In this document: positions 1 through 14,223 of the stretch, piece after piece
Numbering within the stretch: position 1 is the first letter of the stretch
Layout: each line of letters begins with the position of its first letter
Source of the DNA: a virus
Virus genome (UHGV): UHGV-0099328
Reading direction: 5' to 3' (one strand)
Length of the DNA: 14,223 nt
Made by a program: the position numbers and the translations under genes
The notes under the pieces: model-generated
What the model was told of the DNA's origin: nothing
The model's database searches: none
Seen by the model: only the letters and a program-made list of their open reading frames with translations

Positions 1-155
1 GCTCCGGATGAATATGATGATCTCATATCAGGAACTTGTTCGCACCTTCCTTAGCGCGACCTCCTGCCACCCGCTTTCACGAAGGTCATGTGTAGAAGGC
101 CGCAGCGTAACTATCACTGATGAATTCAGGATAGCCAGTGGCTACGGCTCAGTTA

Positions 156-231
156 TGGTGCTGTTTAACGGACTTGAACCGCTACCCATTCGCTTACAAG
201 GCGACCGCTCTACCATTGGAGCTAAAACAGC
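156..231 (-). tRNA. tRNA-Thr (anticodon UGU), phage-encoded
   Basis: Reverse complement folds as a canonical cloverleaf: acceptor GCTGTTT/AAACAGC 7/7 bp, D-stem GCTC/GAGC, anticodon loop CTTGTAA with U33 and anticodon TGT, T-stem AGCGG/CCGTT, T-loop TTCAAGT, discriminator A and encoded CCA. Anticodon stem has one mismatch. Isotype is from hand folding only. Confidence 0.6.
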
Positions 232-311: not shown

Positions 312-374
312 AAATAAAAAAAGCCACCGTTGCAACTTAAGAGTCACTAACGGCAGCTTACCTTCTAATTATGG

Positions 375-893
375 CTAAATGGATAATTGCATGTCAAGGC
401 TTTTAACAGCAACATGCTTAACTTTCTCAACACGTTTACGCATTTTGAAAGCATTTTGCATTGGCTGGTACAAAACAAATAACGATGCTTTCAGGATGTC
501 GTCAATTTCGTTTCTACAGGTTGCCAGTGAAGGTTTTCTCCATCCCTCGCCACCACGTCCACACATCTTGCGTGGCTTTGCAGTCGCGTGATAGTAGGAT
601 GCAATTGCTCGCTTAGATGAACCATGAGCGTAGTAGCTGAGGAGGATGCCAAAGGCTTTCTTGTCAATGCACATGACGGAATCGACGACCTGAGAAATCA
701 ACATTCCATCATCATCATTGCACATTGGCCTTGTCATAACTCTTCCCGGCTCTACGCTCTCCATGAACTTCGCTATTACGCTGCTCATGCGCTTTTCCAG
801 ACGACCTGAATAAACCCATGCGCCCCACAGTTCAAGCCAGCCATTCAGCCACTCATGCTGTTCTTTGGTGAGGTTTAGTTCTCTTATGCCCAC
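375..893 (-). CDS. Q: Late-gene antitermination protein Q (non-lambda Q family, resembling DLP12 QuuD / phage 82 type)
   Basis: 172-aa ORF immediately downstream of NinI with 10-nt overlap. Motifs WGAW and [11 protein letters not shown] match the QuuD-type Q proteins as recalled and do not match lambda Q. Position after the nin genes is the canonical Q position. Confidence 0.75.
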
Positions 894-1555
894 GCGCCTT
901 CTCCCTGTACCTGAATCAATGTGAGGTTTCCGCAGAACACTGCGCCGGTATCGATATACATTTGGTTGGCAAATTTAAGTGGTTTCACTGCTGGCGTATG
1001 ACCAAAGATAAACGTGTCCGCGCCTTTAATTTCTTTCACGATCCCGTCTTGTGAGTTGCTGATTCGTTCGCGGTTCCAGATTACCTGCTGATGATCAACT
1101 GGCTTTCCAAATTCGTATTCGTCACAAGGATAATCGGCGTGGCAGATGACATATTTTTTACCTTTGCTCACCAGTTCGATGATTAACGGAAGTTCTTCTG
1201 CTTTATGGGCAAGAGCTTTAGCCAGAATTTCTTTGTCGTAATCGAGATTAAAGAACCAGACACCGCCATTAAGCAGCCAGTGATTGACGTTTCCACGCTC
1301 TGATAAGCCATCAATCATCATGTGCTCATGGTTTCCACGTACAGCTCTGAACCAGGGGAATGTGATTAATTCCAGGCATTCAACGTTCTCTGCACCACGA
1401 TCAACCAAATCGCCCACCGAGATAAGCAGGTCTTTTTTGTTGTCGAATCCAATCGTATCCAGTTTGTTCATAAGGTTCGTGTAGCATCCGTGCAGGTCGC
1501 CAGCTACCCAAATATTTCGGTATTTGCTGCCATCAATTCTTTCGTAGATATTCAT
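884..1555 (-). CDS. ninI: Serine/threonine protein phosphatase NinI (lambda PPase)
   Basis: 223-aa ORF with metallophosphatase motifs GDLHG, GDLVDRG and GNHE; near-identical over its length to lambda NinI as recalled. Start ATG overlaps the NinG stop (ATGA). Confidence 0.9.
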
Positions 1556-2163
1556 GCAGCCTCACTTCTGCTGTTTCGCAGTTTTTTAAGTTTCTGTTGA
1601 TACTCCGCCTTGATGGTCCTGCACTCTTCGACAGTCCAGCGATGGCGGTTATGGTTTGATTCGATTTCGTCTACTGCTTCCTGCCCGATGCGGTTAATCA
1701 GTTCGACGCGATACGGAACGAGATTTCCGCTTTTGTGCTGGTTGCACACCACGCATTGCTTGTGAATATTGCGTTCATCAAATCGGAGTTGAGGCGCCGC
1801 AGCAGTTGTCCGGTAATGCCCGGCATCCCACTGAGCAGACGTGAGCGTTCCGCACGAGATACATGGTAAGTCGCGGTCTCTTTCTCTGATGAAGGCGTTT
1901 ACGGCTTGTTGGGCTTGTTTAATCCAGTAACTGCGGGGCTTTAAGGCGAGTTTTCGAATCTTAAGTTTATCTTTCTGTTTCTGATCCTCTCGTCGTCGTT
2001 TCTTCTCTGCTGCTTTTTCCGCTTTTTCGCGTTCTTTACTTCGTCGTTCGAGTGCTATCTTGGTTCCACACTCTGGAGAGCACCACCACTGATTAGCGAA
2101 TGCAGGGTGAAACCATTCCCGACATTCATCGTTTTTACATCGTCTTCGCGCTGGTTTAGCCAT
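1552..2163 (-). CDS. ninG: NinG (Rap) recombination-associated endonuclease
   Basis: 203-aa ORF with a Cys-rich N-terminus and highly basic central region; matches lambda NinG as recalled. Sits in the lambda ninF-ninG-ninI order. Confidence 0.85.
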
Positions 2164-2326
2164 CGTCTTCTTCCTCGTACATTGAGCTATTCGGATCGCT
2201 CATCAGTTCTGCGCAGCAGTGCTCACACACGTGAACTTCCAGCACATGCAGCTTCTGACCGCAGTTAGCGCACGTTAAAGCCCGCTCGACGCTTTCTTGT
2301 TCGTAACTTCGATTTTGGTCAATCAC
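2156..2326 (-). CDS. ninF: NinF-like small Cys-rich protein
   Basis: Not in the supplied ORF track (under 60 aa). Hand translation from a GTG start gives a 56-aa peptide, [56 protein letters not shown], whose stop overlaps the NinG start. Packed between NinE and NinG as in lambda. Confidence 0.55.
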
Positions 2327-2505
2327 CTTGTTTTCCTCGCACGTTCTCTAAGCCACCGGATATCCCACAGGTGAGCCGTGTAGTTGAAGGTTTTTACGTC
2401 AGATTCTTTTGGGATTGGCTTGCGTTTATTTCTGGAGCGTTTCGTTGGAAGGTATTTGCAGTTTTCGCAGATGATGTCGGTGATACTTCGTCGCTGTCGC
2501 CTCAT
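2323..2505 (-). CDS. ninE: NinE
   Basis: 60-aa basic ORF whose ATG overlaps the NinB stop (GAATGA); matches lambda NinE as recalled. Confidence 0.75.
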
Positions 2506-2912
2506 TCATACCTCCTGTCGGTAAATCTGACACCCTGACCAATAGCCCAGGCTGTTGTGTACTCGATAAGACTTGCCATACGCTTCACACTCATCTGCGC
2601 GCTGCTTTCGCGAATGTTGACGTATTCGCCTTCAAGCCCGGGCAAAACATCAGCTTCCTGCTTTGTTGCCACTGCATGACCGCTGATCAACAAAACCTTC
2701 CATTGTTCTGGTTTTAACCATTTATCGCGCCACTGAACTTGCCTAGCGATATCTGCGACCATCGCGTGAAATTTTGCGTTCTGGTCAAGGTTGCGCTTGT
2801 AGTCAGTAATGCGGATGGTGACTGGCTTGTCTTTATCGAGTGGTGTTGCGAGGATGGCATTTATTGCGGCTTGCTGTTGTTGCTTAGTTCGGAGGAAGAT
2901 TGTTTGCTTCAC
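2502..2912 (-). CDS. ninB: NinB-family recombination protein (Orf family)
   Basis: 136-aa ORF with a GTG start preceded by AAGGAG at 6-nt spacing. Conserved block [27 protein letters not shown] parallels lambda NinB (RSLDQNRKLWACLGDVSRQVEWHGRWL as recalled); diverged from lambda. Confidence 0.75.
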
Positions 2913-2923
2913 TGAATACTCCT

Positions 2924-3115
2924 TTATTTTTTATGCCTGTAACCCCATTCTTCCAGCAACCTTGCGGCGTACCACCCAAGAAACAAAGGAAAGAACATTA
3001 CAATGAGATATTCCCCGCCACGGTCAATGTTCGAAATTGACCAGATTACGATGTAACCAGTGCAGGACAGGAATATTACAAACCCCAAAAAGCTACTTCG
3101 TCGACTCATGCTCAC
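2924..3115 (-). CDS. Hypothetical small membrane protein
   Basis: 63-aa ORF with two hydrophobic segments; its start overlaps the stop of the upstream 94-aa ORF (ATGA). Same strand as the nin operon. Confidence 0.45.
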   Translation of the reverse strand: MSMSRRSSFLGFVIFLSCTGYIVIWSISNIDRGGEYLIVMFFPLFLGWYAARLLEEWGYRHKK

Positions 3116-3396
3116 TCCTTCACTTTGATTCCAGCGGCGCGGATGGATTCATCGATATCGTCACGGTCGTACACAGCAATAGCATCACTGACAAACCATA
3201 CAGGCAACTCAATTTCAATAGCTGCTCGCGATGCCTGCCACGTTTGCCAGTGGCCTTGAACATCGTCCATCACGTATTGACCACCAATATCACCACTGCC
3301 AATTTCATGGTGATTTTCAGGGTAACGGATAAGGTCTGATGATTCGCCTCCACGTCGCAACCAACTTTCTTCAAACTGCTTTCTTGATTCGTCCAT
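3112..3396 (-). CDS. Hypothetical acidic protein (nin-region accessory gene)
   Basis: 94-aa ORF, acidic and soluble-looking, on the operon strand between the replication and nin genes. No family recognised. Confidence 0.5.
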   Translation of the reverse strand: MDESRKQFEESWLRRGGESSDLIRYPENHHEIGSGDIGGQYVMDDVQGHWQTWQASRAAIEIELPVWFVSDAIAVYDRDDIDESIRAAGIKVKE

Positions 3397-3413
3397 CGAT
3401 ACTTACCCTCAGT

Positions 3414-3620
3414 TCAACTCACAAAACGCCACGCCATTTTGGCTACAGCGACAGGCATAACACCGATAATCACCCAGACAAATGCAGCGCCAAACAACGT
3501 ATACCATGGTTCTTTACCGTCATTCACAAGACGAATGTAGCTATGCAGAACAATAAAAAACGTCAGAAGAATCCATCCAACGCCAACGAATTTGAGTGCG
3601 ACGAGCATAAACTCAACCAC
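3414..3620 (-). CDS. Hypothetical small membrane protein
   Basis: 68-aa ORF with two predicted transmembrane segments, first gene after the tR2-like terminator. Confidence 0.45.
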   Translation of the reverse strand: MVEFMLVALKFVGVGWILLTFFIVLHSYIRLVNDGKEPWYTLFGAAFVWVIIGVMPVAVAKMAWRFVS

Positions 3621-3630
3621 GATTTACTCT

Positions 3631-3667
3631 CCCCCAAATAAAAAGGCCTGCGATTACCAGCAGGCCT
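3631..3667 (-). terminator. Intrinsic terminator after the helicase gene (lambda tR2 position)
   Basis: On the minus strand: AGGCCTGC-tggtaatc-GCAGGCCT (8-bp GC-rich stem) followed by TTTTTATTT. Lies between the helicase stop and the first nin-region ORF. Confidence 0.6.
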
Positions 3668-3695
3668 GTTATTAGCTCAGTGATGTAGATGGTCA

Positions 3696-5132
3696 TCAGA
3701 ATCCTCCTTTCTTCTTGGACTGCGGTTCCTCGCGTTCACGTCGGCGCATTTCAGCAGACTGTTGGTCTGTGTCATAAATAGCGCCATTTGCCTGAATGCA
3801 ATACACCGTGCCGGTATTGCCATGACGATTGAGACGAAGGATTAGTTCAGTTTCACCAGGTGGAACACTGTCATCAAAAGCGCCTTCACGATGGATCCCG
3901 ACCCAATAATCGCAATCCTGTTCAATCTGCCCTGTATCTCGTGAGTCACTTGGTAATGGGCGTTTATTGGTTCTGCTTTCCAGTGCGCGGTTAAGCTGCG
4001 TCAGAAGCACAACAACGCAATCAAGCTCTTTGGCAAGGTTCTTCAGTCCTTTGGTGATCATGCCGTAAGCAAGGTCGTTGCGATCGGCCTTCTCAGCGGT
4101 CATTAGTGTCAGGTAATCGACCAGAATCATGCCAACACATCCTTTTTCTCGCTTGATTCGACGGCTTTCGCTGACGATTTGAGCCAGAGATAATCCCGGC
4201 GTGTCGTCGATGTAAAGCAGGTCTATTTCACTCAAGCGATTGGCTGTTTCTATCGCCCTGTTGAAGTCACCATCGTAATCACCCTGATAGCCGTCATCGG
4301 CGTCATTTGTCGCCGGAAGGTAAAAAATATTCGGGTTAACACCAGACTTCTGCCCTACCAGTTTTTCCAGTATCTGATCACCTGGCATTTCAAGGCTGAA
4401 CATCAATGCGGGCTTTTTCTCATGCACTGCGCAATTGATTGCCATCTGGCTGTATAGCGTCGTTTTCCCCATCTTAGGGCGAGCGCCAATGACAAACAGA
4501 GAGCCTTTCACCAGACCTTTCGGTGACAGCATCCTGTCCAGCGATGGGATCCCTGTGCTCATTCCCCGTTGTTCGCCTGATGGGTCAAATCGCTTCTCAA
4601 GGTCGCTAACCCAGTCTTCCATGACCTCACCAAATGAGCGAAGGCCGCGACGCGATCCGGTTTTTGCATGGTCTGTCAGTTGCGTGAAAATCGCCTGAAT
4701 AGCTTCGTACTTCTGCGTTGCAGTCATTCCGTTGCGGGAATAGAGCAATTCCGTCGCTTCAGTCATGCGGTTGATGGCGTAGCGTTCCATTGCGGTTTCA
4801 CGAACCTGCATTGCATAGGCAACGATGTTTGCTGCGCTTGGCGTGTTCTTTGCGATCTCAGAGATATAAGCAAAACCGCCAACAGACGCCGTTAACGATT
4901 TGCGCTCCAGTTCATCGAAAAGCGTCAGGCCATCTACTGGCTTTTGCTCCCGGTGCATTCTGGTTATTTCTTCGAAAAGGATTTTGTGTGGTCGGCTGTA
5001 AAATGAATCAGGCTTCAGCATCGCCAGAACTTTCTGGACGCGCTCACTGCTGTCATCATCCAGAAGCAATCCACCAATCACCGCCTGCTCTGCCTCGATG
5101 CTATGGGGCGGCGCATAAAAATTATCGGTCAT
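3696..5132 (-). CDS. Replicative DNA helicase, DnaB family (P22 gp12-like)
   Basis: Walker A GARPKMGKTT and DnaB-like architecture. ORF track starts at 5147 (GTG), but ATG at 5132 with upstream GAGGG is preferred, giving an 11-nt overlap with the initiator gene. Confidence 0.9.
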   Translation of the reverse strand: MTDNFYAPPHSIEAEQAVIGGLLLDDDSSERVQKVLAMLKPDSFYSRPHKILFEEITRMHREQKPVDGLTLFDELERKSLTASVGGFAYISEIAKNTPSAANIVAYAMQVRETAMERYAINRMTEATELLYSRNGMTATQKYEAIQAIFTQLTDHAKTGSRRGLRSFGEVMEDWVSDLEKRFDPSGEQRGMSTGIPSLDRMLSPKGLVKGSLFVIGARPKMGKTTLYSQMAINCAVHEKKPALMFSLEMPGDQILEKLVGQKSGVNPNIFYLPATNDADDGYQGDYDGDFNRAIETANRLSEIDLLYIDDTPGLSLAQIVSESRRIKREKGCVGMILVDYLTLMTAEKADRNDLAYGMITKGLKNLAKELDCVVVLLTQLNRALESRTNKRPLPSDSRDTGQIEQDCDYWVGIHREGAFDDSVPPGETELILRLNRHGNTGTVYCIQANGAIYDTDQQSAEMRRREREEPQSKKKGGF

Positions 5133-6012
5133 CGTGTTCACCCTCACGAACTTTCAGGTAGGTATTATCGTTAAGCAGGAAATCAAATCCCTTTTTGTGC
5201 CAGACGGTTCCGCGTTGATGGTTTGGGCGTTCTTCGAACATCCATCGGCAATTTTCGCCTACGTAGCTCAAATAATTTCTCCAGTCCTGCATCGTGAACC
5301 CATGCCCGTCAAGCTGGCGGGTTATCACTCCGGCTTTGCGCCAGAACGTTCGGATCTGGTTTTTACGCTTGTCATTCAGTGCGCGGATTCTTGGCGCTTC
5401 AGGAAGGATTTCGTGGTAAGCATCGACAACATCCTGACAGCTGACGGAAGGTTTTTTCTTGTCAGACTTTTTATCTGCTGTGGCACTCTCTAATACGTCA
5501 GTATTAGAGATATTATTTATATTATTGTTTATGGACAACCGTTGGACAACCGTTGGACAATCTCCGCTGAGAGCCACGCCATTACTGGTGTTTGCGTTGG
5601 ACAACCGTTGGACAACCGTTGGACAATTTTTTGCCTGAAAATCGTCATATTTAACGATTGTAAACAGGCTAAATTTCTTCCCCATCGAGCAAATATTAAG
5701 CATCCCTTTCGACTCAAAAGTCCGTAATAAGCTCCGAACTTTGTTGTCGGGGATGAATGTTTCTCTGACCAGCGACGGGCGTCCAGTTATCATCTGACCG
5801 CGATCAACAGTTATCGGACCGATATCCGTATTGACGACAGTAGATTCGTGATTAGCCTTGAGGATTAAGTGAAGCCAAAGATGTACTGCCTGAGAGTCCT
5901 TATAGAGCCTGCTGTCCATAAACTGGCGGTGTATAGAGACATACCCCATACTGGATGCCTCCTGATGTTGTACAGGGTTATGCCTGTAATCAGCTAACTT
6001 AACGACGCCCAT
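5122..6012 (-). CDS. Replication initiator protein (lambda O / P22 gp18 analogue) containing the origin
   Basis: 296-aa ORF directly upstream of the helicase, with AGGAG 7 nt before the ATG. Origin iterons lie inside the coding sequence (repeated peptide CPTVVQRLS), as in lambda O. Confidence 0.8.
   Translation of the reverse strand: MGVVKLADYRHNPVQHQEASSMGYVSIHRQFMDSRLYKDSQAVHLWLHLILKANHESTVVNTDIGPITVDRGQMITGRPSLVRETFIPDNKVRSLLRTFESKGMLNICSMGKKFSLFTIVKYDDFQAKNCPTVVQRLSNANTSNGVALSGDCPTVVQRLSINNNINNISNTDVLESATADKKSDKKKPSVSCQDVVDAYHEILPEAPRIRALNDKRKNQIRTFWRKAGVITRQLDGHGFTMQDWRNYLSYVGENCRWMFEERPNHQRGTVWHKKGFDFLLNDNTYLKVREGEHDDR
5529..5630. repeat. Replication origin iterons: two clusters of about three 11-bp direct repeats (GGACAACCGTT) flanked by an AT-rich tract
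   Basis: Seen directly: atGGACAACCGTTGGACAACCGTTGGACAAtc at 5531-5562 and GTTGGACAACCGTTGGACAACCGTTGGACAAtt at 5596-5628, separated by about 35 bp, with an AT-rich stretch at 5495-5530. Classic lambdoid ori architecture. Confidence 0.75.
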
Positions 6013-6160
6013 GTTTCACTCCTGCTTTGGCTAGTCTGTAAACACCAACAAGGCGCTCTGCGAACGCCCTGTTATTTGCTGCGGCTACCACTAATCCCTC
6101 AGGTGAATCAGGGTGTCGAATCTCTTCTTTTTCCTGGTATTTCTTACGACGTTTTGTCAT
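5999..6160 (-). CDS. Hypothetical small basic protein between cII and the initiator
   Basis: Not in the ORF track (53 aa). ATG at 6160 preceded by AGGAG; translation MTKRRKKYQEKEEIRHPDSPEGLVVAAANNRAFAERLVGVYRLAKAGVKHGRR. Its stop overlaps the initiator start. Confidence 0.3.
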   Translation of the reverse strand: MTKRRKKYQEKEEIRHPDSPEGLVVAAANNRAFAERLVGVYRLAKAGVKHGRR

Positions 6161-6164
6161 AATT

Positions 6165-6237
6165 ACTCCTGTGGATTGATCCAGTCTTTCTACATCAGGC
6201 CTCGAAGAATTCGCCGTTCTTCGGGGCTTTTTCTTTT
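6165..6237 (+). ncRNA. oop: Candidate oop-like antisense RNA ending in an intrinsic terminator over the cII 3' end
   Basis: Plus-strand hairpin CGAAGAA-ttcgccg-TTCTTCG (6203-6223) followed by GGGCTTTTTCTTTT, antisense to the cII stop region. Lambda has oop RNA in the same relative position. The 5' end is not defined; the promoter is only guessed near CATAAT at 6158-6163. Confidence 0.4.
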
Positions 6238-6473
6238 GTCAGCATTCTGGCTACTTTCTTAGCCAGTTCCGCCAACTCCTCGTCTTCAACACCCCATTCA
6301 AGAACAGCCAGAAGCATTCCCATTTTGGGGATGAAGCTGTCTTTCCATCGCGAAATTTGCGATTCATTAATCCCTAACGCATCAGCAACCTTTCGCTGAC
6401 CACGTACAGCAATTCGATTCAGGATGTTGCTTGTAATTGCATTCGCTTTCTTGCGAGTACTTGTATGTTGCAT
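6195..6473 (-). CDS. cII: CII-family transcriptional activator (P22 C1-like)
   Basis: Start assigned to the internal ATG at 6473, which carries the lambda-like leader TAAGGAAATACTTACAT; the ORF track extends to 6533. Motif SQISRWK...IPKMGMLLAVLEWGV matches lambda CII (SQISRWK...IPKFSMLLAVLEWGV), while the N-terminus differs from lambda. Confidence 0.8.
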   Translation of the reverse strand: MQHTSTRKKANAITSNILNRIAVRGQRKVADALGINESQISRWKDSFIPKMGMLLAVLEWGVEDEELAELAKKVARMLTKEKAPKNGEFFEA

Positions 6474-6552
6474 ATGTAAGTATTTCCTTAGATAACAATT
6501 GATTGAATGTATGCAAATAAATGCATACACCATAGGTGTGGTTTAATTTGAT

Positions 6553-6584
6553 GCCCTTTTTCAGGGCTGGAATGTGTAAGAGCG
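6553..6584 (-). promoter_or_regulatory. nutR (boxA + boxB)
   Basis: On the minus strand: boxA CGCTCTTACACATTCCA and boxB GCCCTGAAAAAGGGC (perfect 5-bp stem) immediately downstream of cro, matching lambda nutR as recalled. Confidence 0.75.
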
Positions 6585-6591
6585 GGGTTAT

Positions 6592-6801
<210 letters not shown>

Positions 6802-6808
6802 TTAGTAC

Positions 6809-7606
<798 letters not shown>

Positions 7607-7692
7607 GTCCGCAGCAAGAGACTTTATACGCATCTAGATGTAGGAAATAAAAAAGAAGATCCCTACAATAAAAATAAGGAAATCATTAAGAT

Positions 7693-8598
7693 ATGTCGAT
7701 TAACAGCAATAGCGAATCCCTGCATCAAATGCAGCTTTTCCCTGTAGTAGAGGTTGTTTCTGATGATATTCCTATGGGCGTTCTCAATGATGGAACTCCT
7801 TACCTAACTCTCTACGGTCTCGCAAAGTTATGCGGCATTGATGACACGCCACTGAGGGTGTTCACATCAAACTGGAACACAGAGAAAAACAAACCCAGAG
7901 GTCAAAAAGTAGCTGCGTATTTAGCTGAGAAAGGGTTTCATAACGTCGAAAAGCTATACACTCGCGTTTTAAATAGCTCAAACGTGGAAACTCATGCTTA
8001 TCCTGACTATGTTTGCATGGCTATCCTCCGTTACTACGCTCTAGATGCCACCAATTTTGATAGGTCAGTCGCAATAGGTAATTTTGTTCGCTTGGCTGAG
8101 TACACGCTTAAGCGAATGATTTATGAAAAGTCAAATTACAACCCAAATGCTTCAATAGATATCTCATTCGAGAACTATAGAGCAAGGATTAAGCTAAACG
8201 ATCAGATACCGACAACTCATTTTGCAGTATTCAGAGAGATAGCTGACATTGCCATGAACCTGATCGGAGGAGGATTCCCAATGGATGACACCACATCTTT
8301 GGATGGAAGTGTTGGAATTCACTGGGGAAAGTATTGGACAGCTAATGGGCTATCTGAGAAATTCGGGGAAAGGGTGCAGTACCCACATTTATTCCCCGAA
8401 AATTACAGGCAGTCAGCTGCAAATAAGCATATAACAGCTTGGATTTATCCTATTGAGGCACTTGGCGTGTTCAGAAAATGGCTACACGATAATTACGCAA
8501 TGGAAAAACTGCCAAATTACCTTGGGAACAAAAAGATTAGTAACGCCTCCGAGCTATTAGAGTCGATAAAAAAACCAGCACTCCCAAATAAGCATTGA
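7693..8598 (+). CDS. Hypothetical protein in the rexA-rexB position; candidate prophage defence / superinfection-exclusion factor
   Basis: 301-aa ORF immediately downstream of and co-oriented with cI, followed by an intrinsic terminator and then oL/pL. It is unrelated to RexA or RexB and looks AT-rich compared with cI. The N-terminal segment PMGVLNDGTPYLTLYGLAKLCGIDDTP loosely resembles KilA-N/Bro-N DNA-binding domains (from memory). Confidence 0.7.
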   Translation: MSINSNSESLHQMQLFPVVEVVSDDIPMGVLNDGTPYLTLYGLAKLCGIDDTPLRVFTSNWNTEKNKPRGQKVAAYLAEKGFHNVEKLYTRVLNSSNVETHAYPDYVCMAILRYYALDATNFDRSVAIGNFVRLAEYTLKRMIYEKSNYNPNASIDISFENYRARIKLNDQIPTTHFAVFREIADIAMNLIGGGFPMDDTTSLDGSVGIHWGKYWTANGLSEKFGERVQYPHLFPENYRQSAANKHITAWIYPIEALGVFRKWLHDNYAMEKLPNYLGNKKISNASELLESIKKPALPNKH

Positions 8599-8610
8599 TC
8601 TCCACCACAA

Positions 8611-8636
8611 CCCGGCATCTGCGCCGGGTTTTCTTT
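8611..8636 (+). terminator. Intrinsic terminator ending the cI operon (lambda timm position)
   Basis: CCCGGC-atctgc-GCCGGG hairpin followed by TTTTCTTT, 13 nt after the stop of the 301-aa gene. Confidence 0.65.
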
Positions 8637-8786
8637 GCCTAACGCCCCCAAAAAACGCATAACCAATTGTATTTATTTCAAAATTAATAGATACAACTCA
8701 CTAAACATCGCAATTCAGATCTCTCGATCACCTTCCCAATCCACACAACCCTGCAAAAAATAAATCTATATAAAAAACATACAGAT

Positions 8787-8856
8787 AACCATCTGCGGTG
8801 ATAAATTATCTCTAGCGGTGTTGACATAAATACCACTGGCGGTGATACTAAGCACA
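8787..8856 (+). promoter_or_regulatory. oL3-oL2-oL1 operators and pL promoter
   Basis: 17-bp operator sites at 8787-8803, 8807-8823 and 8831-8847 (AACCATCTGCGGTGATA, TATCTCTAGCGGTGTTG, TACCACTGGCGGTGATA). pL -35 TTGACA (8821-8826) and -10 GATACT (8844-8849) with 17-bp spacing. Confidence 0.85.
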
Positions 8857-8888
8857 TCAGCAGGACGCACTGACCACCATGAAGGTGA

Positions 8889-8919
8889 CGCTCTTAAAAA
8901 TTAAGCCCTGAAGAAGGGT
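8889..8919 (+). promoter_or_regulatory. nutL (boxA + boxB)
   Basis: boxA CGCTCTTAAAAATTAA followed by boxB GCCCTGAAGAAGGGT. The boxB stem closes with a G-U pair where nutR in this window (and lambda, as recalled) has G-C. Confidence 0.75.
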
Positions 8920-9117
8920 AGCATTCAAAGCAGAAGGCTTTGGGATTGGATGAATGAGCAGGCTGATGCTCGACCAATGTATAAACAGCGCTCATGGCAA
9001 GCAGTAACCAATCTGCGCCTCAAGACAGCGTCACTGGTAGTGCGGGCGCTCTAACCAGTAAGCCGGGGTTCAGCGCCGGCCATCCAATCACCAAAGCTAA
9101 CTGACAGGAGAATCCAG

Positions 9118-9450
9118 ATGGATGCACAAACACGCCGCCGCGAACGTCGCGCAGAGAAACAGGCTCAATGGAAAGCAGCAAATCCCCTGTTAGTTGGGGT
9201 AAGCGCAAAACCAGTTAACCGCCCTATTCTCTCGCTGAATCGAAAACCGAAATCACGAGTAGAAAGCGCACTGAATCCGATAGACCTTACGGTGCTGGCT
9301 GAATACCACGAACAGATTGAAAGCAACCTGCAGCGTATTGAGCGCAAGAATCAGCGCACATGGTACAGCAAGCCACGCAGTGAAATAGGTGTGACTTGCT
9401 CAGGCCGCCAGAAGCAACGCGGAAAATCAATTCCAGCTTATTACGATTGA
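9118..9450 (+). CDS. N: Antitermination protein N (lambda type, variant C-terminus)
   Basis: 110-aa ORF starting MDAQTRRRERRAEKQAQWKAANPLLVG (arginine-rich boxB-binding motif), preceded by AGGAGA. The last 25 or so residues diverge from lambda N as recalled. Confidence 0.9.
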   Translation: MDAQTRRRERRAEKQAQWKAANPLLVGVSAKPVNRPILSLNRKPKSRVESALNPIDLTVLAEYHEQIESNLQRIERKNQRTWYSKPRSEIGVTCSGRQKQRGKSIPAYYD

Positions 9451-9458
9451 GGTGAGCC

Positions 9459-9596
9459 ATGCTCAAGAAAGTCAAGCGCCGACTTTACAAAGAAGGTAGA
9501 TATTCATGCCAGTTGCCAAAATGCGACACAACAAAATGGAGTGTCGATGATTGGTGTAACTGGATAGATAGATACGGAACTTGGTGGGATAAATAA
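9459..9596 (+). CDS. Hypothetical small Cys-rich protein
   Basis: Not in the ORF track (45 aa). ATG at 9459 preceded by TTGAGGTGAG; translation MLKKVKRRLYKEGRYSCQLPKCDTTKWSVDDWCNWIDRYGTWWDK with three Cys and five Trp. Confidence 0.35.
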   Translation: MLKKVKRRLYKEGRYSCQLPKCDTTKWSVDDWCNWIDRYGTWWDK

Positions 9597-9650
9597 CAGG
9601 TAACTTAAGCGTATTTACTTTCGCAGCAAACCACTTATTTGAGGTGAGAT

Positions 9651-10121
9651 ATGACAAAATCATGGAGCGTACCTTTTCCTGAATCAGAAACTGAACATGA
9701 TGGAATGCCTGTTTTCTGGAGATTCCAGGCGACAGTTGAAGAAGATGGGATAAAAATATTCGCACTTCAATATATAGCTTTTCATCAGACAGAGCATTAT
9801 GCATGGTTGGTTCCTGCGCATTGGATTGTTAATTTTAAACCAGCACCAAATCAGTGGTTACAGGAATGGAAACAAAGGAGAAATAGATATGCAATTAAGA
9901 AAGTAGCAAAAAATGCAGAAAGATCTTTTGCATTCCCAACGAAGAAACTTGCTATTGAAAGTTTATTGCGCCGGAAGAAATACCATTTAATGAGAATAAA
10001 ACAAGATTTGGCTGTTGTATCAACTCTTGTTGATGGGATGAAAAATATTGATACATCAACACCAGATATTGAATATAACTTTGGACACAACCAAGAAACA
10101 GAAAACTGGGTGTTTTATTAG
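9651..10121 (+). CDS. Hypothetical protein in the ral/sieB position between N and cIII
   Basis: 156-aa ORF with the same TTGAGGTGAG ribosome-binding motif as the upstream small ORF. AT-rich; no similarity to lambda Ral, SieB or Ea10 as recalled. Confidence 0.65.
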   Translation: MTKSWSVPFPESETEHDGMPVFWRFQATVEEDGIKIFALQYIAFHQTEHYAWLVPAHWIVNFKPAPNQWLQEWKQRRNRYAIKKVAKNAERSFAFPTKKLAIESLLRRKKYHLMRIKQDLAVVSTLVDGMKNIDTSTPDIEYNFGHNQETENWVFY

Positions 10122-10225
10122 TACGAATAAGCACTGTGTATTCATTCCAACGAGTGAATACACGGAGCAATGTCGCTCGTAACCAAACAGGAGCCGACTT
10201 GTTCTGATTATTGGAAATCTTCTTT

Positions 10226-10250
10226 GCCCTCCAGTGTGAGGGCCTTTTTA
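10226..10250 (+). terminator. Intrinsic terminator upstream of cIII
   Basis: GCCCTC-cagtgt-GAGGGC hairpin followed by CTTTTTAT. Confidence 0.5.
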
Positions 10251-10311
10251 TATGCATACCAATAACGCTTCACTCGAGGCGTTTTCGTTATGTATAAATA
10301 AGGAGCACACC

Positions 10312-10476
10312 ATGCAATATGCCATTGCAGGGTGGCCTGTTGCTGGCTGCCCTTCCGAATCTTTACTTGAACGAATCACCCGTAAATTACGTGACGGATG
10401 GAAACGCCTTATCGACATACTTAATCAGCCAGGAGTCCCAAAAAATGGATCAAACACTTATGGCTATCCAGACTAA
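10312..10476 (+). CDS. cIII: CIII (FtsH/HflB inhibitor)
   Basis: 54-aa product [54 protein letters not shown] starting at the internal ATG, preceded by AGGAG; matches lambda CIII as recalled. The ORF track's upstream extension is rejected. Confidence 0.85.
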   Translation: MQYAIAGWPVAGCPSESLLERITRKLRDGWKRLIDILNQPGVPKNGSNTYGYPD

Positions 10477-10588
10477 ATTCACTATCGCCACTTTTATTGG
10501 CGATGAAAAGATGTTTCGTGAAGCCGTCGACGCTTATAAAAAATGGATATTAATACTGAAACTGAGATCAAGCAAAAGCATTCACTAA
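10445..10588 (+). CDS. kil: Kil (host-killing FtsZ inhibitor)
   Basis: 47-aa product [47 protein letters not shown], overlapping the cIII 3' end in another frame as in lambda. Confidence 0.75.
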
Positions 10589-10663
10589 CCCCCTTTCCTG
10601 TTTTCCTAATCAGCCTGGCATTTCGCGGGCGATATTTTCACAGCCATTTTCAGGAGTTCAGCC

Positions 10664-10960
10664 ATGAACGCTTATTACATTCAGGATCGTCTTGAGGCTC
10701 AGAGCTGGGCGCGTCACTACCAGCAGATCGCCCATGAAGAGAAAGAGGCAGAACTGGCAGACGACATGGAAAAAGGCCTGCCCCAGCACCTGTTTGAATC
10801 GCTATGCATCGATCATTTGCAACGCCACGGGGCCAGCAAAAAAGCCATTACCCGTGCGTTTGATGACGATGTTGAGTTTCAGGAGCGCATGGCAGAACAC
10901 ATCCGGTACATGGTTGAAACCATTGCTCACCACCAGGTTGATATTGATTCAGAGGTATAA
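10664..10960 (+). CDS. gam: Gam (RecBCD inhibitor), short GamS form
   Basis: 98-aa [26 protein letters not shown]... matching lambda GamS as recalled. Confidence 0.9.
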
Positions 10961-10965
10961 AACGG

Positions 10966-11751
10966 ATGAGTACAGCACTCGCAACGCTGGCAGGGAAGCT
11001 GGCTGAACGTGTCGGCATGGATTCTGTCGACCCACAGGAACTGATCACCACTCTTCGCCAGACGGCATTTAAAGGTGATGCCAGCGATGCGCAGTTCATC
11101 GCATTGTTGATCGTCGCCAACCAGTACGGCCTTAATCCGTGGACGAAAGAAATTTACGCCTTCCCTGATAAGCAGAACGGCATCGTTCCGGTGGTGGGCG
11201 TTGATGGCTGGTCCCGCATCATCAATGAAAACCAGCAGTTTGATGGCATGGACTTTGAGCAGGACAATGAATCCTGTACATGCCGGATTTACCGCAAGGA
11301 CCGTAATCATCCGATCTGCGTTACCGAATGGATGGATGAATGCCGCCGCGAACCATTCAAAACTCGCGAAGGCAGAGAAATCACGGGGCCGTGGCAGTCG
11401 CATCCCAAACGGATGTTACGGCATAAAGCCATGATTCAGTGTGCCCGTCTGGCCTTCGGATTTGCTGGTATCTATGACAAGGATGAAGCCGAGCGCATTG
11501 TCGAAAATACTGCATACACTGCAGAACGTCAGCCAGAACGCGACATCACTCCGGTTAACGATGAAACCATGCAAGAGATTAACACTCTGCTGATCGCCCT
11601 GGATAAAACATGGGATGACGACTTATTGCCGCTCTGTTCCCAGATATTTCGCCGCGACATTCGCGCATCGTCAGAACTGACACAGGCCGAAGCAGTGAAA
11701 GCTCTTGGATTCCTGAAACAGAAAGCCACTGAGCAGAAGGTGGCAGCATGA
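10966..11751 (+). CDS. bet: Bet (Red-beta single-strand annealing protein)
   Basis: 261-aa ORF matching lambda Bet essentially throughout as recalled; its stop overlaps the exo start. Confidence 0.95.
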
Positions 11752-12428
11752 CACCGGACATTATCGTGCAGCGTACCGGGATCGACGTGAGAGCTGTCGA
11801 ACAGGGGGATGATACATGGCACAAATTACGGCTCGGCGTCATCACCGCTTCAGAAGTTCACAACGTGATAGCAAAGCCCCGCTCAGGAAAGAAGTGGCCT
11901 GACATGAAAATGTCCTACTTCCACACCCTGCTGGCTGAGGTTTGCACCGGTGTGGCTCCGGAAGTTAATGCTAAGGCGCTGGCCTGGGGAAAACAGTACG
12001 AGAACGACGCCAGAACTCTGTTTGAATTCACTTCCGGCGTGAATGTTACCGAATCCCCGATCATCTATCGCGACGAAAGTATGCGCACCGCCTGCTCTCC
12101 CGATGGTTTATGCAGTGACGGCAATGGCCTTGAGCTGAAATGCCCGTTTACCTCCCGGGATTTCATGAAGTTCCGGCTCGGTGGTTTCGAGGCCATAAAG
12201 TCGGCTTACATGGCCCAGGTGCAGTACAGCATGTGGGTGACACGAAAAGATGCCTGGTACTTTGCCAACTATGACCCGCGTATGAAGCGTGAAGGACTGC
12301 ATTATGTCGTGGTTGAGCGGGATGAAAAGTACATGGCGAGTTTTGACGAGATGGTGCCGGAGTTCATCGAAAAAATGGACGAGGCACTGGCTGAAATTGG
12401 TTTTGTATTTGGGGAGCAATGGCGATGA
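11748..12428 (+). CDS. exo: Exo (Red-alpha 5'-3' exonuclease)
   Basis: 226-aa [54 protein letters not shown]... matching lambda exonuclease as recalled. Confidence 0.95.
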
Positions 12429-12607
12429 CGCATCCTCACGATAATATCCGGGTAGGCGCGATCACTTTCGTCTACTCCATTACAAAGCGAGGCTGGGTAT
12501 TTCCCGGTCTTTCTGTTATCAGAAATCCACTGAAAGCACAGGGGCTGGCTGAAGAGATAAATAATAAACGAGGGGCTGTATGCACAAAGCATCTCCTGTT
12601 GAATTAA
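12425..12607 (+). CDS. Small hypothetical protein (lambda orf60a-like)
   Basis: 60-aa product [29 protein letters not shown]... from the ATG overlapping the exo stop. Position and sequence recall the lambda b-region small ORF. Confidence 0.5.
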
Positions 12608-13065
12608 GAACGAGTATCGAGATGGCACATAGCCTTGCTCAAATTGGAGTCAGGTTTGTGCCAATACCAGTAGAAACAGACGAAGAATTTCATACGTTAG
12701 CCGCATCCCTTTCACAAAAGCTGGAAATGATGGCGGCGAAAGCAGAAGCAAACGAGAGAGAGACCCGGCATGACAACAACAGAATGCATTTTTCTGGCAG
12801 CGGGCTTCATATTCTGTGTGCTTATGCTTGCCGACATGGGACTTGTTCAATGACACCTCAGCAAGAAAACGCCCTTCGCAGCATTGCCCGTCAGGCTAAT
12901 TCTGAAATCAAAAATGCCAGACAGCAGTTTCCGGATAAAAACGTCGATGACATTTGCCGTAGCGTACTGAAGAAGCACCGCGAAACGGTAACGCTGATGG
13001 GATTCACACCGACTCACTTAAGTCTGGCAATCGGTATGTTAAACGGCGTCTTTAAGGAACGGTGA
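12580..13065 (+). CDS. Hypothetical protein (lambda orf63/orf61-like, apparently composite)
   Basis: 161-aa ORF with GAGGGG 5 nt upstream of the ATG. N-terminal and C-terminal segments each resemble separate small lambda ORFs as recalled. Confidence 0.5.
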   Translation: MHKASPVELRTSIEMAHSLAQIGVRFVPIPVETDEEFHTLAASLSQKLEMMAAKAEANERETRHDNNRMHFSGSGLHILCAYACRHGTCSMTPQQENALRSIARQANSEIKNARQQFPDKNVDDICRSVLKKHRETVTLMGFTPTHLSLAIGMLNGVFKER

Positions 13066-13163
13066 ACATGAAAAGCAAAATCATCAGGGAGCTACAGGCT
13101 CCTTTTTTATTATTCGCATTCACCCTCAAGCGTATTAACCAACAATTCAGGGATTAATGAAAG

Positions 13164-13385
13164 ATGGCAGATATCATTGATTCAGCATCAGAAATTGAAG
13201 AATTACAGCGCAATACAGCAATAAAAATGCGTCGCCTGAACTACCAGACTGTATCCGCAACTCATTGTTGTGAGTGTGGCGATCCGATAGATGAACGAAG
13301 ACGCCTGGCAGTTCAGGGTTGTCGGACTTGTGCAAGTTGCCAGGAGGATCTGGAGCTTATCAGTAAACAGAGAGGTTCGAAGTGA
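13164..13385 (+). CDS. TraR/DksA-family C4 zinc-finger protein (lambda orf73-like)
   Basis: 73-aa ORF with CCECG-x17-CRTCASC four-cysteine motif and an acidic N-terminal helix, typical of TraR-like RNA polymerase-binding proteins. Confidence 0.75.
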   Translation: MADIIDSASEIEELQRNTAIKMRRLNYQTVSATHCCECGDPIDERRRLAVQGCRTCASCQEDLELISKQRGSK

Positions 13386-13455
13386 TTCCACTGTCGCCAG
13401 GCCATGCCTACGGGATGTTTATGGAACGTTTTAACGAGTTATCGGAGTTACGCAA

Positions 13456-13806
13456 ATGCGCATGAATGTTTTCGAAATGGAAGGGTTTCTTCGCGGGAAA
13501 TGTGTACCACGAGATCTGAAAGTGAATGAAACAAATGCTGAGTATCTGGTGCGTAAATTCGATGAAGTACGTGCTGAGGCTCGCAACGAGGGTATTAACT
13601 ATACCGCAAGCCGTCTTGCTGCGGCTTTCAATCACGGATTTATCAATAAGTCTTTACGTGAAGTTTTCGACGTTACACGCATGATTCTGTCAGCGAAAGA
13701 AGAGTTGGCTAATGAACCACACCCGATTGATGGCCTGTCCGGTGAATATGCGGAGAAATCCCTAGAAGAATGGGCGGAACAGATTCGCAAAGGAGGCAAC
13801 CAGTGA
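13456..13806 (+). CDS. Hypothetical protein (ea8.5 position)
   Basis: 116-aa ORF with an upstream in-frame stop fixing the start; no family recognised. Confidence 0.55.
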   Translation: MRMNVFEMEGFLRGKCVPRDLKVNETNAEYLVRKFDEVRAEARNEGINYTASRLAAAFNHGFINKSLREVFDVTRMILSAKEELANEPHPIDGLSGEYAEKSLEEWAEQIRKGGNQ

Positions 13807-14223
13807 GCAAGATTGACTATCAAGAACTGCGCGAGGCGGCGGAACAGGCAACGCAAGATGAATGGGTAGCATATATTTTGCCGGGTCATAACGGCATTTA
13901 TCCTGCGCGCACGTCTGAGGGTAGGCATTGCGGATACTTTATTGACTGGCCTGGCGTCTGTCAGGGGCGGGAGAGCATCAGCATCAGAACCTACGCAGTG
14001 AATTGCAATGACGCATGGCTAAACACCGAAGGTGATGACATCTCCGGCTCATACGTTAAGTACAAAGACCATCAGGAAGTGGTTGCCGCTCTTGAGGCCA
14101 AGTGCGCGGCGCTGGCTGCTGAGAATGCGGGAATAAAGTCTGCAATTCCAAAATCACGGGATATTGAGGATGACAATGACAATATGGATGACGTATCTCT
14201 CGCGGAAGACTTCGGGTTCAATC
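13803..14223 (+). CDS. Hypothetical protein, partial (Ea22-like), continues beyond window end
   Basis: Not in the ORF track (no stop inside the window). GTG at 13803 preceded by AGGAGG at 6-nt spacing; translation VSKIDYQELREAAEQATQDEWVAY... runs open to position 14223. An in-frame ATG at 13770 is an alternative start. Confidence 0.5.
   Translation, partial: MSKIDYQELREAAEQATQDEWVAYILPGHNGIYPARTSEGRHCGYFIDWPGVCQGRESISIRTYAVNCNDAWLNTEGDDISGSYVKYKDHQEVVAALEAKCAALAAENAGIKSAIPKSRDIEDDNDNMDDVSLAEDFGFN

Follow-up and report, generated by a model that had tools for sequence, protein, structure and literature searches.

A lambdoid mosaic in virus genome UHGV-0099328: lambda-type immunity and Red genes beside an Sf6-type right operon

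We analysed a stretch of 14,223 nucleotides from the virus genome UHGV-0099328, referred to here as the window, which very probably represents the early and regulatory region of a lambdoid prophage in a bacterial chromosome, built by repeated recombination among lambdoid phages and prophages. It is a textbook lambdoid mosaic made from known modules and not a new kind of system, and each block has 94-100% DNA identity to some already sequenced phage or prophage. A map of its open reading frames (ORFs) with domain and homology assignments gives the conserved lambdoid early-region order, recombination genes-cIII-N-repressor-cro-cII-replication-nin-Q-pR', in reversed orientation relative to the usual lambda map. 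Modular mosaicism, exchange at conserved linkers and lambda-immunity phages with other genes in place of rexAB are already established for lambdoid phages, and the early operons of P22-like and lambdoid phages are highly mosaic, including the Asn/Thr tRNAs that follow Q (PMC2629481). The sole part that could add knowledge is a conserved site resembling the lambda antisense promoter paQ, found inside phage-21-type Q genes.

A mosaic module structure had been proposed by an earlier, sequence-only reading of this DNA, and a segment-wise comparison bears it out. We searched the whole window by megablast against 50,697 phage records and 5,426 complete E. coli genomes, with 80% coverage in one place as the criterion; no record in either collection reaches that level, the best single-place coverage being 55% among the phage records (HK630) and 64% among the complete E. 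coli genomes. A single best reference phage for the whole window was accordingly rejected. Local BLASTN with a 100-bp identity table against lambda, HK630, Sf6, P22, HK620, Huey, CL707 and DLP12, together with BLASTN against vB_EcoP-611R6, Stx2 phage 86 and the best E. coli prophage (STEC1587), produced a patchwise picture, in which blocks of 95-100% identity stop abruptly at stretches without alignment. We take the mosaic to be real because no reference phage shows uniform identity across the window, the outcome that would have spoken against it. The earlier interpretation is partly supported: right in outline, but with its donors mislabelled and the functional consequence over-read.

The patches can be read directly from the alignments, as can the breakpoints and gene identities. 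Lambda aligns in nine segments and nowhere else in the window: 51-165 (91.5%), 891-1546 (97.0%), 1552-2498 (97.0%), 3627-3697 (98.6%), 6471-7606 (98.2%), 8609-8944 (91.1%), 9089-9374 (97.9%), 10131-10253 (96.7%) and 10254-13385 (97.4%). Sf6 aligns at 97-98% over 51-1546, 1552-2520, 3613-6586, 8849-8944, 9076-9653 and 10131-10249. The remaining references fill other intervals: HK620 over 2161-2911 and 3414-5532, vB_EcoP-611R6 over 2480-3697, CL707 over 6186-8944, the STEC1587 prophage over 5982-9413 and Stx2 phage 86 over 9623-13385 (about 98% by 100-bp bins). The interval 375-6473, to which the earlier reading had been assigned, contains at least seven further breakpoints.

The map resolves at least six joined blocks with different nearest relatives, from which we infer a recombination history and a functional prophage. 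The first is an Sf6-type right operon comprising cII, orf53, an iteron-bearing initiator, a DnaB helicase, nin genes, a phage-21-family Q, pR'/qut/tR' and tRNA-Asn/Thr, with a second, HK620/611R6-type insert of NinB and three small ORFs. The third is the lambda immunity core of cro, oR, cI and oL, and the fourth the defence gene bstA, which takes the place of rexAB. An Sf6-type N with its own leader variant forms the fifth, and a left arm of lambda/Stx2-86 type, from orf156 through cIII, kil, gam, bet and exo, the sixth.

Such a patchwork could in principle be an assembly artefact, with several co-resident lambdoid prophages collapsed into one chimeric contig. The sole 100% match, over 2580-14223 of the window, is to contig AATQFA010000002.1 of the draft bacterial assembly GCA_013061345.1, which is presumably the source of the window and not a reference phage; moreover, several lambdoid prophages per E. 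coli genome are frequent, and we found a median of three matching places per genome. However, independent records, some of them finished genomes or phage genomes, run across all the internal junctions: Sf6 spans 51-2520, 3613-6586 and 9076-9653, HK620 2161-2911 and 3414-5532, 611R6 2480-3697, CL707 6186-8944, STEC1587 5982-9413, Stx2-86 9623-13385, and L096, an independent E. coli-type draft contig, 9623-14223 (at 98.9%). As each junction except that with an IS5-family insertion sequence at the left edge is thus bridged by at least one independent record, a misassembled mosaic is highly improbable.

Where the blocks meet, exchange appears to have taken place at start or stop codons or within short conserved linkers (the nutR/cII leader, the ninA-tR2 segment, the tL2 terminator and the cII-orf53 spacer). 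Three linkers correspond to features that the Sf6 record names 'boundary sequence' (bsq4, bsq5 and bsq6). The first, bsq4 (10131-10253, plus strand), contains a tL2-like hairpin at 10226-10243 and is shared with lambda (96.7%), Sf6 (97.5%), HK620 and STEC1587. The cII-orf53 linker (6151-6229), where the HK620 and P22 alignments resume at 6151, corresponds to bsq5 (6153-6185), adjoined by an oop-like terminator at 6197-6229 on the plus strand. The third, bsq6 (3627-3697, minus strand), contains ninA and the tR2 hairpin (3644-3667) and is shared with lambda (98.6%), P22 (92.9%), Sf6, HK620 and STEC1587; terminator-like hairpins thus lie inside both bsq4 and bsq6. A further shared linker, 9623-9653, ends at the ATG of orf156. 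For the boundary sequences of Sf6, as for CL707, we relied on GenBank annotations and on what Degnan et al. 2007 and Casjens et al. 2004 reportedly describe. Apart from one inside the initiator gene, the breakpoints outside linkers are all close to a start or stop codon, no more than a few bases away: 890/891 (between the end of NinI and the start of Q), 1546/1552 (the site of the missing ninH unit), 2498-2505 (the NinE/NinB overlap), 2914/2915, 3413/3414, 7606/7607 (the cI stop), 8608/8609 and 13385/13386.

This distribution raises a different account, in which illegitimate recombination, with subsequent selection for gene integrity, produced the majority of junctions in place of homologous exchange within linkers. 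The junctions at 7606/7607, 8608/8609, 2914/2915 and 13385/13386 have no shared flanking sequence in the references examined, so homologous linker exchange cannot account for all junctions; together with 3413/3414, for which the same holds, they lie at gene ends, and both ninH and ea10 are missing as exact gene-sized units. Set against this are four junctions in linkers of 31-123 bp shared at 93-100% (6471-6586, 3627-3697, 10131-10253 and 9623-9653), and the phage itself encodes Red Exo and Bet; Rad52-like recombinases are reported to generate mosaics of this kind through relaxed homologous recombination (PMC3945230). We regard illegitimate recombination as a possible but somewhat doubtful origin for most of the junctions. 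The four flank-less junctions also weigh against our reading of the window as a prophage built by repeated recombination among lambdoid relatives, as do two other points: neither the sequence of recombination events nor their count can be recovered, and the end of an IS5-family element between the tRNAs and the lysis genes leaves the inducibility of the prophage in doubt.

Near the middle of the window is the lambda immunity core. The product of cro (6592-6792, minus strand) is 100% identical to that of lambda at the amino-acid level and that of cI (6893-7606, plus strand) 98.7%, and between the two genes are oR1 (6819-6835), oR2 (6843-6859), oR3 (6866-6882) and pR, the last matched by a promoter scan. 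The oL region (8609-8944, plus strand), recognised by alignment to lambda, begins with the timm terminator (8609-8630, plus strand, from a terminator scan) and includes oL3 (8787-8803), oL2 (8807-8823), oL1 (8831-8847) and a match to pL. Single substitutions occur in oR1, oR3 and oL2, and those in oR1 and oR3 are also present in CL707. With lambda-type CI and Cro and three 17-bp operators at both oR and oL, the window is predicted to belong to the imm-lambda group. The close tracking of lambda that had been read from the sequence also holds for N (93.3% amino-acid identity), Bet (99.6%) and Exo (97.8%).

The adjoining cII is of a different origin. It encodes 92 amino acids (6195-6473, minus strand; Pfam Phage_CII, PF05269, 3.5e-42) and is of P22/Sf6 type, with amino-acid identities of 97.8% to Sf6 and HK620, 84.8% to P22 C1 and 51% to lambda CII. 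Its leader, with nutR (boxA and boxB) and tR1 (6471-6586, minus strand), matches both lambda and Sf6 at 99-100%: the window equals lambda through the cII ATG inclusive and equals Sf6 from nutR boxA onward. Because both phages share this 116-bp stretch, the lambda/Sf6 exchange lies somewhere within it. A lambda leader joined to a divergent cII protein, with a junction at that leader, had been read correctly from the sequence. The promoter pRE, located by alignment (6451-6483, plus strand), straddles the junction, its cII box TTGCGAGTACTTGT (6451-6464), which fits the TTGC-N6-TTG(C/T) pattern at the -35, lying within the 5' end of cII and, 13 nucleotides away, its -10 element AAGTAT (6478-6483) within the shared leader. 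The position is that of the CII site annotated in CL707, P22 and Sf6.

Joining a heterologous cII and Q to lambda cI and cro had been expected to change the regulatory circuit, altering pRE activation and late-gene timing. The low identity of cII to lambda CII, the different family to which Q belongs and the location of the lambda junction between the pRE -10 and the cII box are all in line with such a change. Yet the imported cII gene itself contains the cII box, whose spacing from AAGTAT is that of lambda, Q is accompanied by its own pR'/qut/tR' and has its own candidate paQ-like cII site, and the pairing of lambda immunity with a P22-type cII recurs in phage CL707 and in the finished STEC1587 E. 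coli genome. As each module has its own cis sites, altered wiring finds no support, and we consider it unlikely. Under our reading of the mosaic the phage would stay functional, its operators travelling with cI and cro, nut with N, the iterons within the initiator gene, the cII box within cII and qut with Q.

The paQ-like site lies at 568-600, on the plus strand and antisense to Q, and has the geometry of lambda paQ: TTGCGTGGCTTTGC, of the form TTGC-N6-TTGC, then 13 nucleotides and TAGGAT. Lambda paQ reads TTGCGAGCACTTGC, 13 nucleotides and TAGTAT, at a similar relative position within an unrelated Q protein. As the standard for a CII-dependent antisense promoter in Q we used lambda paQ and P22 a23. 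A scan of IMG/VR with Q returned 80 loci that were all 98-100% identical and hence uninformative about conservation, so we turned to species-representative genomes of Enterobacterales, which yielded 32 homologues with 60-99% protein identity; their codon alignment contains 31 distinct sequences. Both half-sites are retained, through invariant GCA and CGC codons, in 29 of the 31. Codon 105 is GCA in 30/30 and codon 108 is CGC in 30/31, and the first base of codon 106 is A in all 30 sequences that keep Ala105, despite a residue that may be K, R, S, I, N or T. At codon 98 the third base is A in 30/31 distinct homologues, and 30/31 retain the TA of Tyr-100; together these yield a -10 of the form T-A-N-N-N-T. 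Contrast codons vary (Pro-107 is CCA/CCT/CCC in 11/10/9 sequences and Lys-109 AAG/AAA in 14/14), and a single codon is used in just 4 of 81 columns with a conserved residue. One homologue, from Phaseolibacter, lacks the two half-sites and the -10 position together. The motif is absent from Stx2-86 q and from quuD, the Sf6 record carries no annotation of such a site in Q, and we found no description of one in the literature searched. This is good comparative evidence for a candidate cII-type antisense promoter inside phage-21-type Q genes. That Q genes of the phage-21 family have a conserved antisense promoter of their own which cII activates, and which would be a functional analogue of lambda paQ in an unrelated coding sequence, we rate as an even bet on these comparative data.

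The Q gene itself (375-893, minus strand) encodes a late antiterminator of 172 amino acids in the phage-21 family (Pfam PF06530, 1.3e-25; 90.1 bits against a cut-off of 26). It had been called QuuD-type, which is correct at the level of the Pfam family, where QuuD scores 179 bits, but not at that of the orthologue: identity to QuuD is 29% over 82 amino acids whereas that to Sf6 gp59 is 98.8%, and on this comparison phage-21-type is the more accurate name. DLP12/QuuD was accordingly rejected as the source of Q, and at the DNA level the Q region of DLP12 does not align. The protein has no match to lambda Q or P22 gp23, and it matches the solved phage-21 Q chains PDB 6JNX/6P18 at E 3e-91. Its N-terminal 102 residues are nearly identical to those of phage 21 Q (6JNX), whereas residue 103 begins a C-terminal third of diverged allelic type, and the window protein has 10 residues more. 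Q is an intragenic mosaic (375-600 here; 3310-3540 in L003): its first 102 codons are almost the same as those of phage 21 Q and of the Q allele in STEC1587, and its C-terminal third and the adjoining pR'/qut region are just 68-85% identical; the switch point adjoins the paQ-like motif. The gene also contains a second island of synonymous conservation at 687-707 (codons 63-69: GGA ATG TTG ATT TCT CAG GTC), where each codon is identical in 28-31 of the 31 sequences and flanking codons vary freely.

Downstream of Q, the late promoter and its control elements occupy 314-397 (minus strand), identified from the sequence, a promoter scan and the Sf6 annotation, and comprise pR', the qut region and tR', a hairpin with a run of T. 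The pR' sequence, TTGACA-18-CATAAT (397-368), agrees at 11 of 12 positions and is the top promoter-like match in the window; the stop codon of Q falls inside its spacer. The homologous stretch of Sf6 is annotated as phage-21-like pR'/qut/tR'. A non-lambda Q followed by tRNAs had been read from the sequence, and downstream of tR' are indeed tRNA-Asn(GTT) (237-311) and tRNA-Thr(TGT) (156-231), both on the minus strand and found by ARAGORN and Rfam (61.2 bits for Thr and 55.3 for Asn). The same pair occurs in Sf6, whose record labels it 'similar to phage 21'. Beyond the tRNAs, the late-operon leader (51-165, minus strand; lambda 91.5%, Huey 96%, and also in Sf6) is interrupted by the terminal 50 bp of an IS5-family insertion sequence (1-50, followed by TTAG), with 88.9% identity to the IS5B end in DLP12; homology to Sf6, lambda and Huey begins at 51. 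With its end placed between the tRNAs and the expected position of the lysis genes, the element could exert polarity on late genes.

The replication module pairs an initiator with a DnaB-family helicase in place of lambda O/P. The helicase (3696-5132, minus strand; 478 amino acids from the ATG at 5132) contains the Pfam DnaB (PF00772, 7e-31) and DnaB_C (PF03796, 3e-60) domains and is 99.6% identical to HK620 P, 99.0% to Sf6 gp44 and 31% to P22 gp12. Its gene overlaps the 3' end of the initiator gene (5122-6012, minus strand), which encodes 296 amino acids with 99.3% identity to Sf6 gp43 and 66% to HK620 O and belongs to PHROG 345, 'replication initiation O-like'. The origin is within the initiator gene, as two clusters of three 11-bp iterons, TTGTCCAACGG, at 5528-5626, the third unit of the cluster at 5528-5560 being degenerate, followed by an AT-rich stretch at 5490-5527; the Sf6 record annotates a rep_origin at the homologous place. 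In its proposed form of an O/gp18-like initiator with a DnaB helicase, the pair is confirmed, but the likeness to gp18 is weaker than thought: the initiator has no match to Pfam Phage_rep_O (PF04492) at E 0.01, whereas lambda O and P22 gp18 match at 1e-36 to 1e-38. It shares with these two proteins the origin inside the gene and the helicase that follows, but not their domain. It has no protein match to lambda O and a marginal one to P22 gp18 (25% over the C-terminal 116 amino acids, E 0.004), and a search of solved structures gave no match. Similarity to HK620 ends inside the initiator gene at 5532/5533, precisely where the AT-rich stretch meets the iterons. The DNA-binding N-terminal half and the iterons switch as a unit, with the C-terminal half staying with the helicase. 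Between initiator and cII is orf53 (5999-6160, minus strand), 100% identical in amino acids to Sf6 gp42 and a member of PHROG 1331, with no assigned function.

The label 'P22-like' for cII and replication therefore stands for the P22 group, to which the right operon belongs, but not for the donor, which is of Sf6/HK620 type, P22 itself being distant. The gene order of a cII-type activator, a small ORF, an origin-bearing initiator, a DnaB-type helicase and ninA/tR2 is that of P22, whose C1 resembles the window cII; by contrast, gp12 and gp18 differ as described above and the P22 replication genes have no DNA-level match. P22 was rejected as the donor of the replication module, with no DNA alignment over genes 18/12; its DNA aligns within the right operon just over cII (80%) and some nin genes.

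In place of rexA-rexB the window carries a segment (7607-8608) that exactly fills the interval between the cI stop codon and the timm terminator, with the abortive-infection gene bstA (7693-8598, plus strand; 301 amino acids; PHROG 6287, 6e-133; PADLOC BstA, 1.3e-105). The gene starts 87 bp past the cI stop, directly downstream of the repressor. BstA is a prophage abortive-infection protein typically encoded at that position, and its cognate aba self-immunity DNA element spans the bstA start (PMC8585504). No CCCGCC repeats like those of BTP1 are present in the sequence read at 7590-7800, and the aba element was not identified there; a 6-bp hairpin occurs near the bstA start at 7720-7734. The gene is 100% identical to that of CL707 and is also present in STEC1587. 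CL707, a wild lambda-immunity phage known from a 5-kb immunity region (GenBank EF120459), shares lambda cI/cro, the oR1/oR3 variants, bstA for rexAB and a P22-type cII at the same leader junction, but has another cII allele (82-90% over 6201-6400) and a lambda-like N leader. The STEC1587 prophage likewise combines lambda immunity, bstA for rexAB and a P22-type cII joined at the same leader, whereas its initiator and helicase differ, its Q is the canonical phage-21 allele and other genes follow N.

Within the interval 375-6473, the nin genes at 891-2498 are close to both lambda (97.0%) and Sf6 (97-98%). They include, all on the minus strand and identified by Pfam, the NinI phosphatase (884-1555; 95.5% amino-acid identity to lambda), NinG (1552-2163; 96.6%), NinF (2156-2326) and NinE (2323-2505), with ninH absent between NinG and NinI. 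NinB (2502-2912, minus strand) is of HK620 type, with 95.6% amino-acid identity to HK620 NinB and 37% to lambda/P22 NinB. Three small ORFs without assigned function follow on the minus strand, of 63 (2924-3115), 94 (3112-3396) and 68 amino acids (3414-3620); the group (2924-3620) matches the function-less families PHROG 343 and PHROG 1165. Over 2915-3413, which holds the first two, vB_EcoP-611R6 is the only matching record in the phage collection (99-100%).

The exact NinI protein was recovered in eight other genomes, all enterobacterial, where the adjacent Q is of the same Pfam family and has 172 amino acids (168 in one, L105); NinI occurs in 4,066 index blocks. The same NinI-Q pair adjoins at least four replication modules (lambda O/P; O with an IstB-like loader; an O-like initiator with DnaB; O with a Toprim primase-helicase), and the head genes of the eight genomes are P22-like, lambda-like or of Mu-F type. 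A constant NinI-Q pair beside varied replication modules shows module shuffling directly.

On the other side of the immunity core, nutL (boxA 8889-8897, boxB 8905-8919, plus strand; from sequence and alignment) precedes a variable part of the N leader (8945-9088, plus strand) whose version is shared, among the fetched records, only by the STEC1587 prophage. The middle of the leader has the form of a hypervariable cassette between the conserved nutL and the N ribosome-binding site, with unrelated sequences of different lengths in lambda, Sf6 and the window. The antiterminator N (9118-9450, plus strand; 110 amino acids; Pfam N36) is 98.2% identical to Sf6 N and 93.3% to lambda N. A junction had been placed at the 3' end of N, and relative to lambda this is correct, the DNA alignment stopping at 9374; relative to Sf6 there is none, the alignment continuing unbroken at 98% to 9653.

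Beyond N, the segment 9623-10130 (plus strand) with orf156 (ORF 9651-10121; PHROG 1636, no assigned function) is 99.7% identical to Stx2 phage 86 and 98% to Huey and occupies the place of lambda sieB and ral; after the 10131-10253 linker, lambda ea10 is absent. The left arm proper (10254-13385) contains, all on the plus strand, cIII with its RNA thermometer (10312-10476; Rfam Lambda_thermo, 88.5 bits), kil (10445-10588), gam in its 98-amino-acid short form (10664-10960), bet (10966-11751), exo (11748-12428), orf60a, a 161-amino-acid DUF1382 fusion ORF (12580-13065; Pfam) and a DksA/TraR-like gene (13164-13385). From orf156 to the DksA-like gene the nearest relative is Stx2 phage 86; compared with lambda in 100-bp bins, its identity is higher in most bins at 10601-11000 and 12501-13400 and lower in several at 11301-12200. 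The long form of lambda Gam is interrupted, its upstream frame (10543-10695) stopping after 50 codons, and the intact short ORF stands alone, as in Stx2 phage 86 ('gam alternate'). The 161-amino-acid ORF fuses a DUF1382 part (lambda orf63-like) with a PHROG 303 part, the two being separate genes both in lambda and in Stx2 phage 86; such fusions are common, with 246 index blocks. The window closes with a variable, ea22-type region (13386-14223, plus strand) with a 116-amino-acid ORF (13456-13806), which has no match to lambda.

Taken across its length, the window resembles the P22-like Shigella phage Sf6 (Lederbergvirus) in cII, gp42, gp43, gp44, gp59 and N (97.8-100% at the amino-acid level) and in pR'/qut/tR', tRNA-Asn/Thr and the annotated boundary sequences. 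It differs in its lambda immunity, bstA, Red genes and HK620-type NinB and in lacking ninH, whereas Sf6 has 434-type immunity, Erf/Abc2 recombination genes, other ORFs from helicase to NinE, ninH, and IS911 in ninG. To lambda it is alike at 91-100% DNA identity in cro, oR, cI, oL, pL, nut, the cIII thermometer, kil, gam, bet, exo and NinI/G/F/E, but rexAB, sieB, ral, ea10, cII, O, P, ren, NinB, NinC, NinD, NinH, Q and qut are non-lambda or missing.

The window is thus a clean and fully mapped example of why such exchanges are tolerated: modules bring their own cis sites. The paQ-like site hints that two Q families with no relation to each other independently evolved, or kept, control by cII through antisense transcription. 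If phage-21-family Q genes do carry such a promoter, the brake that cII places on the late genes through Q would move with each Q module and survive module exchange.

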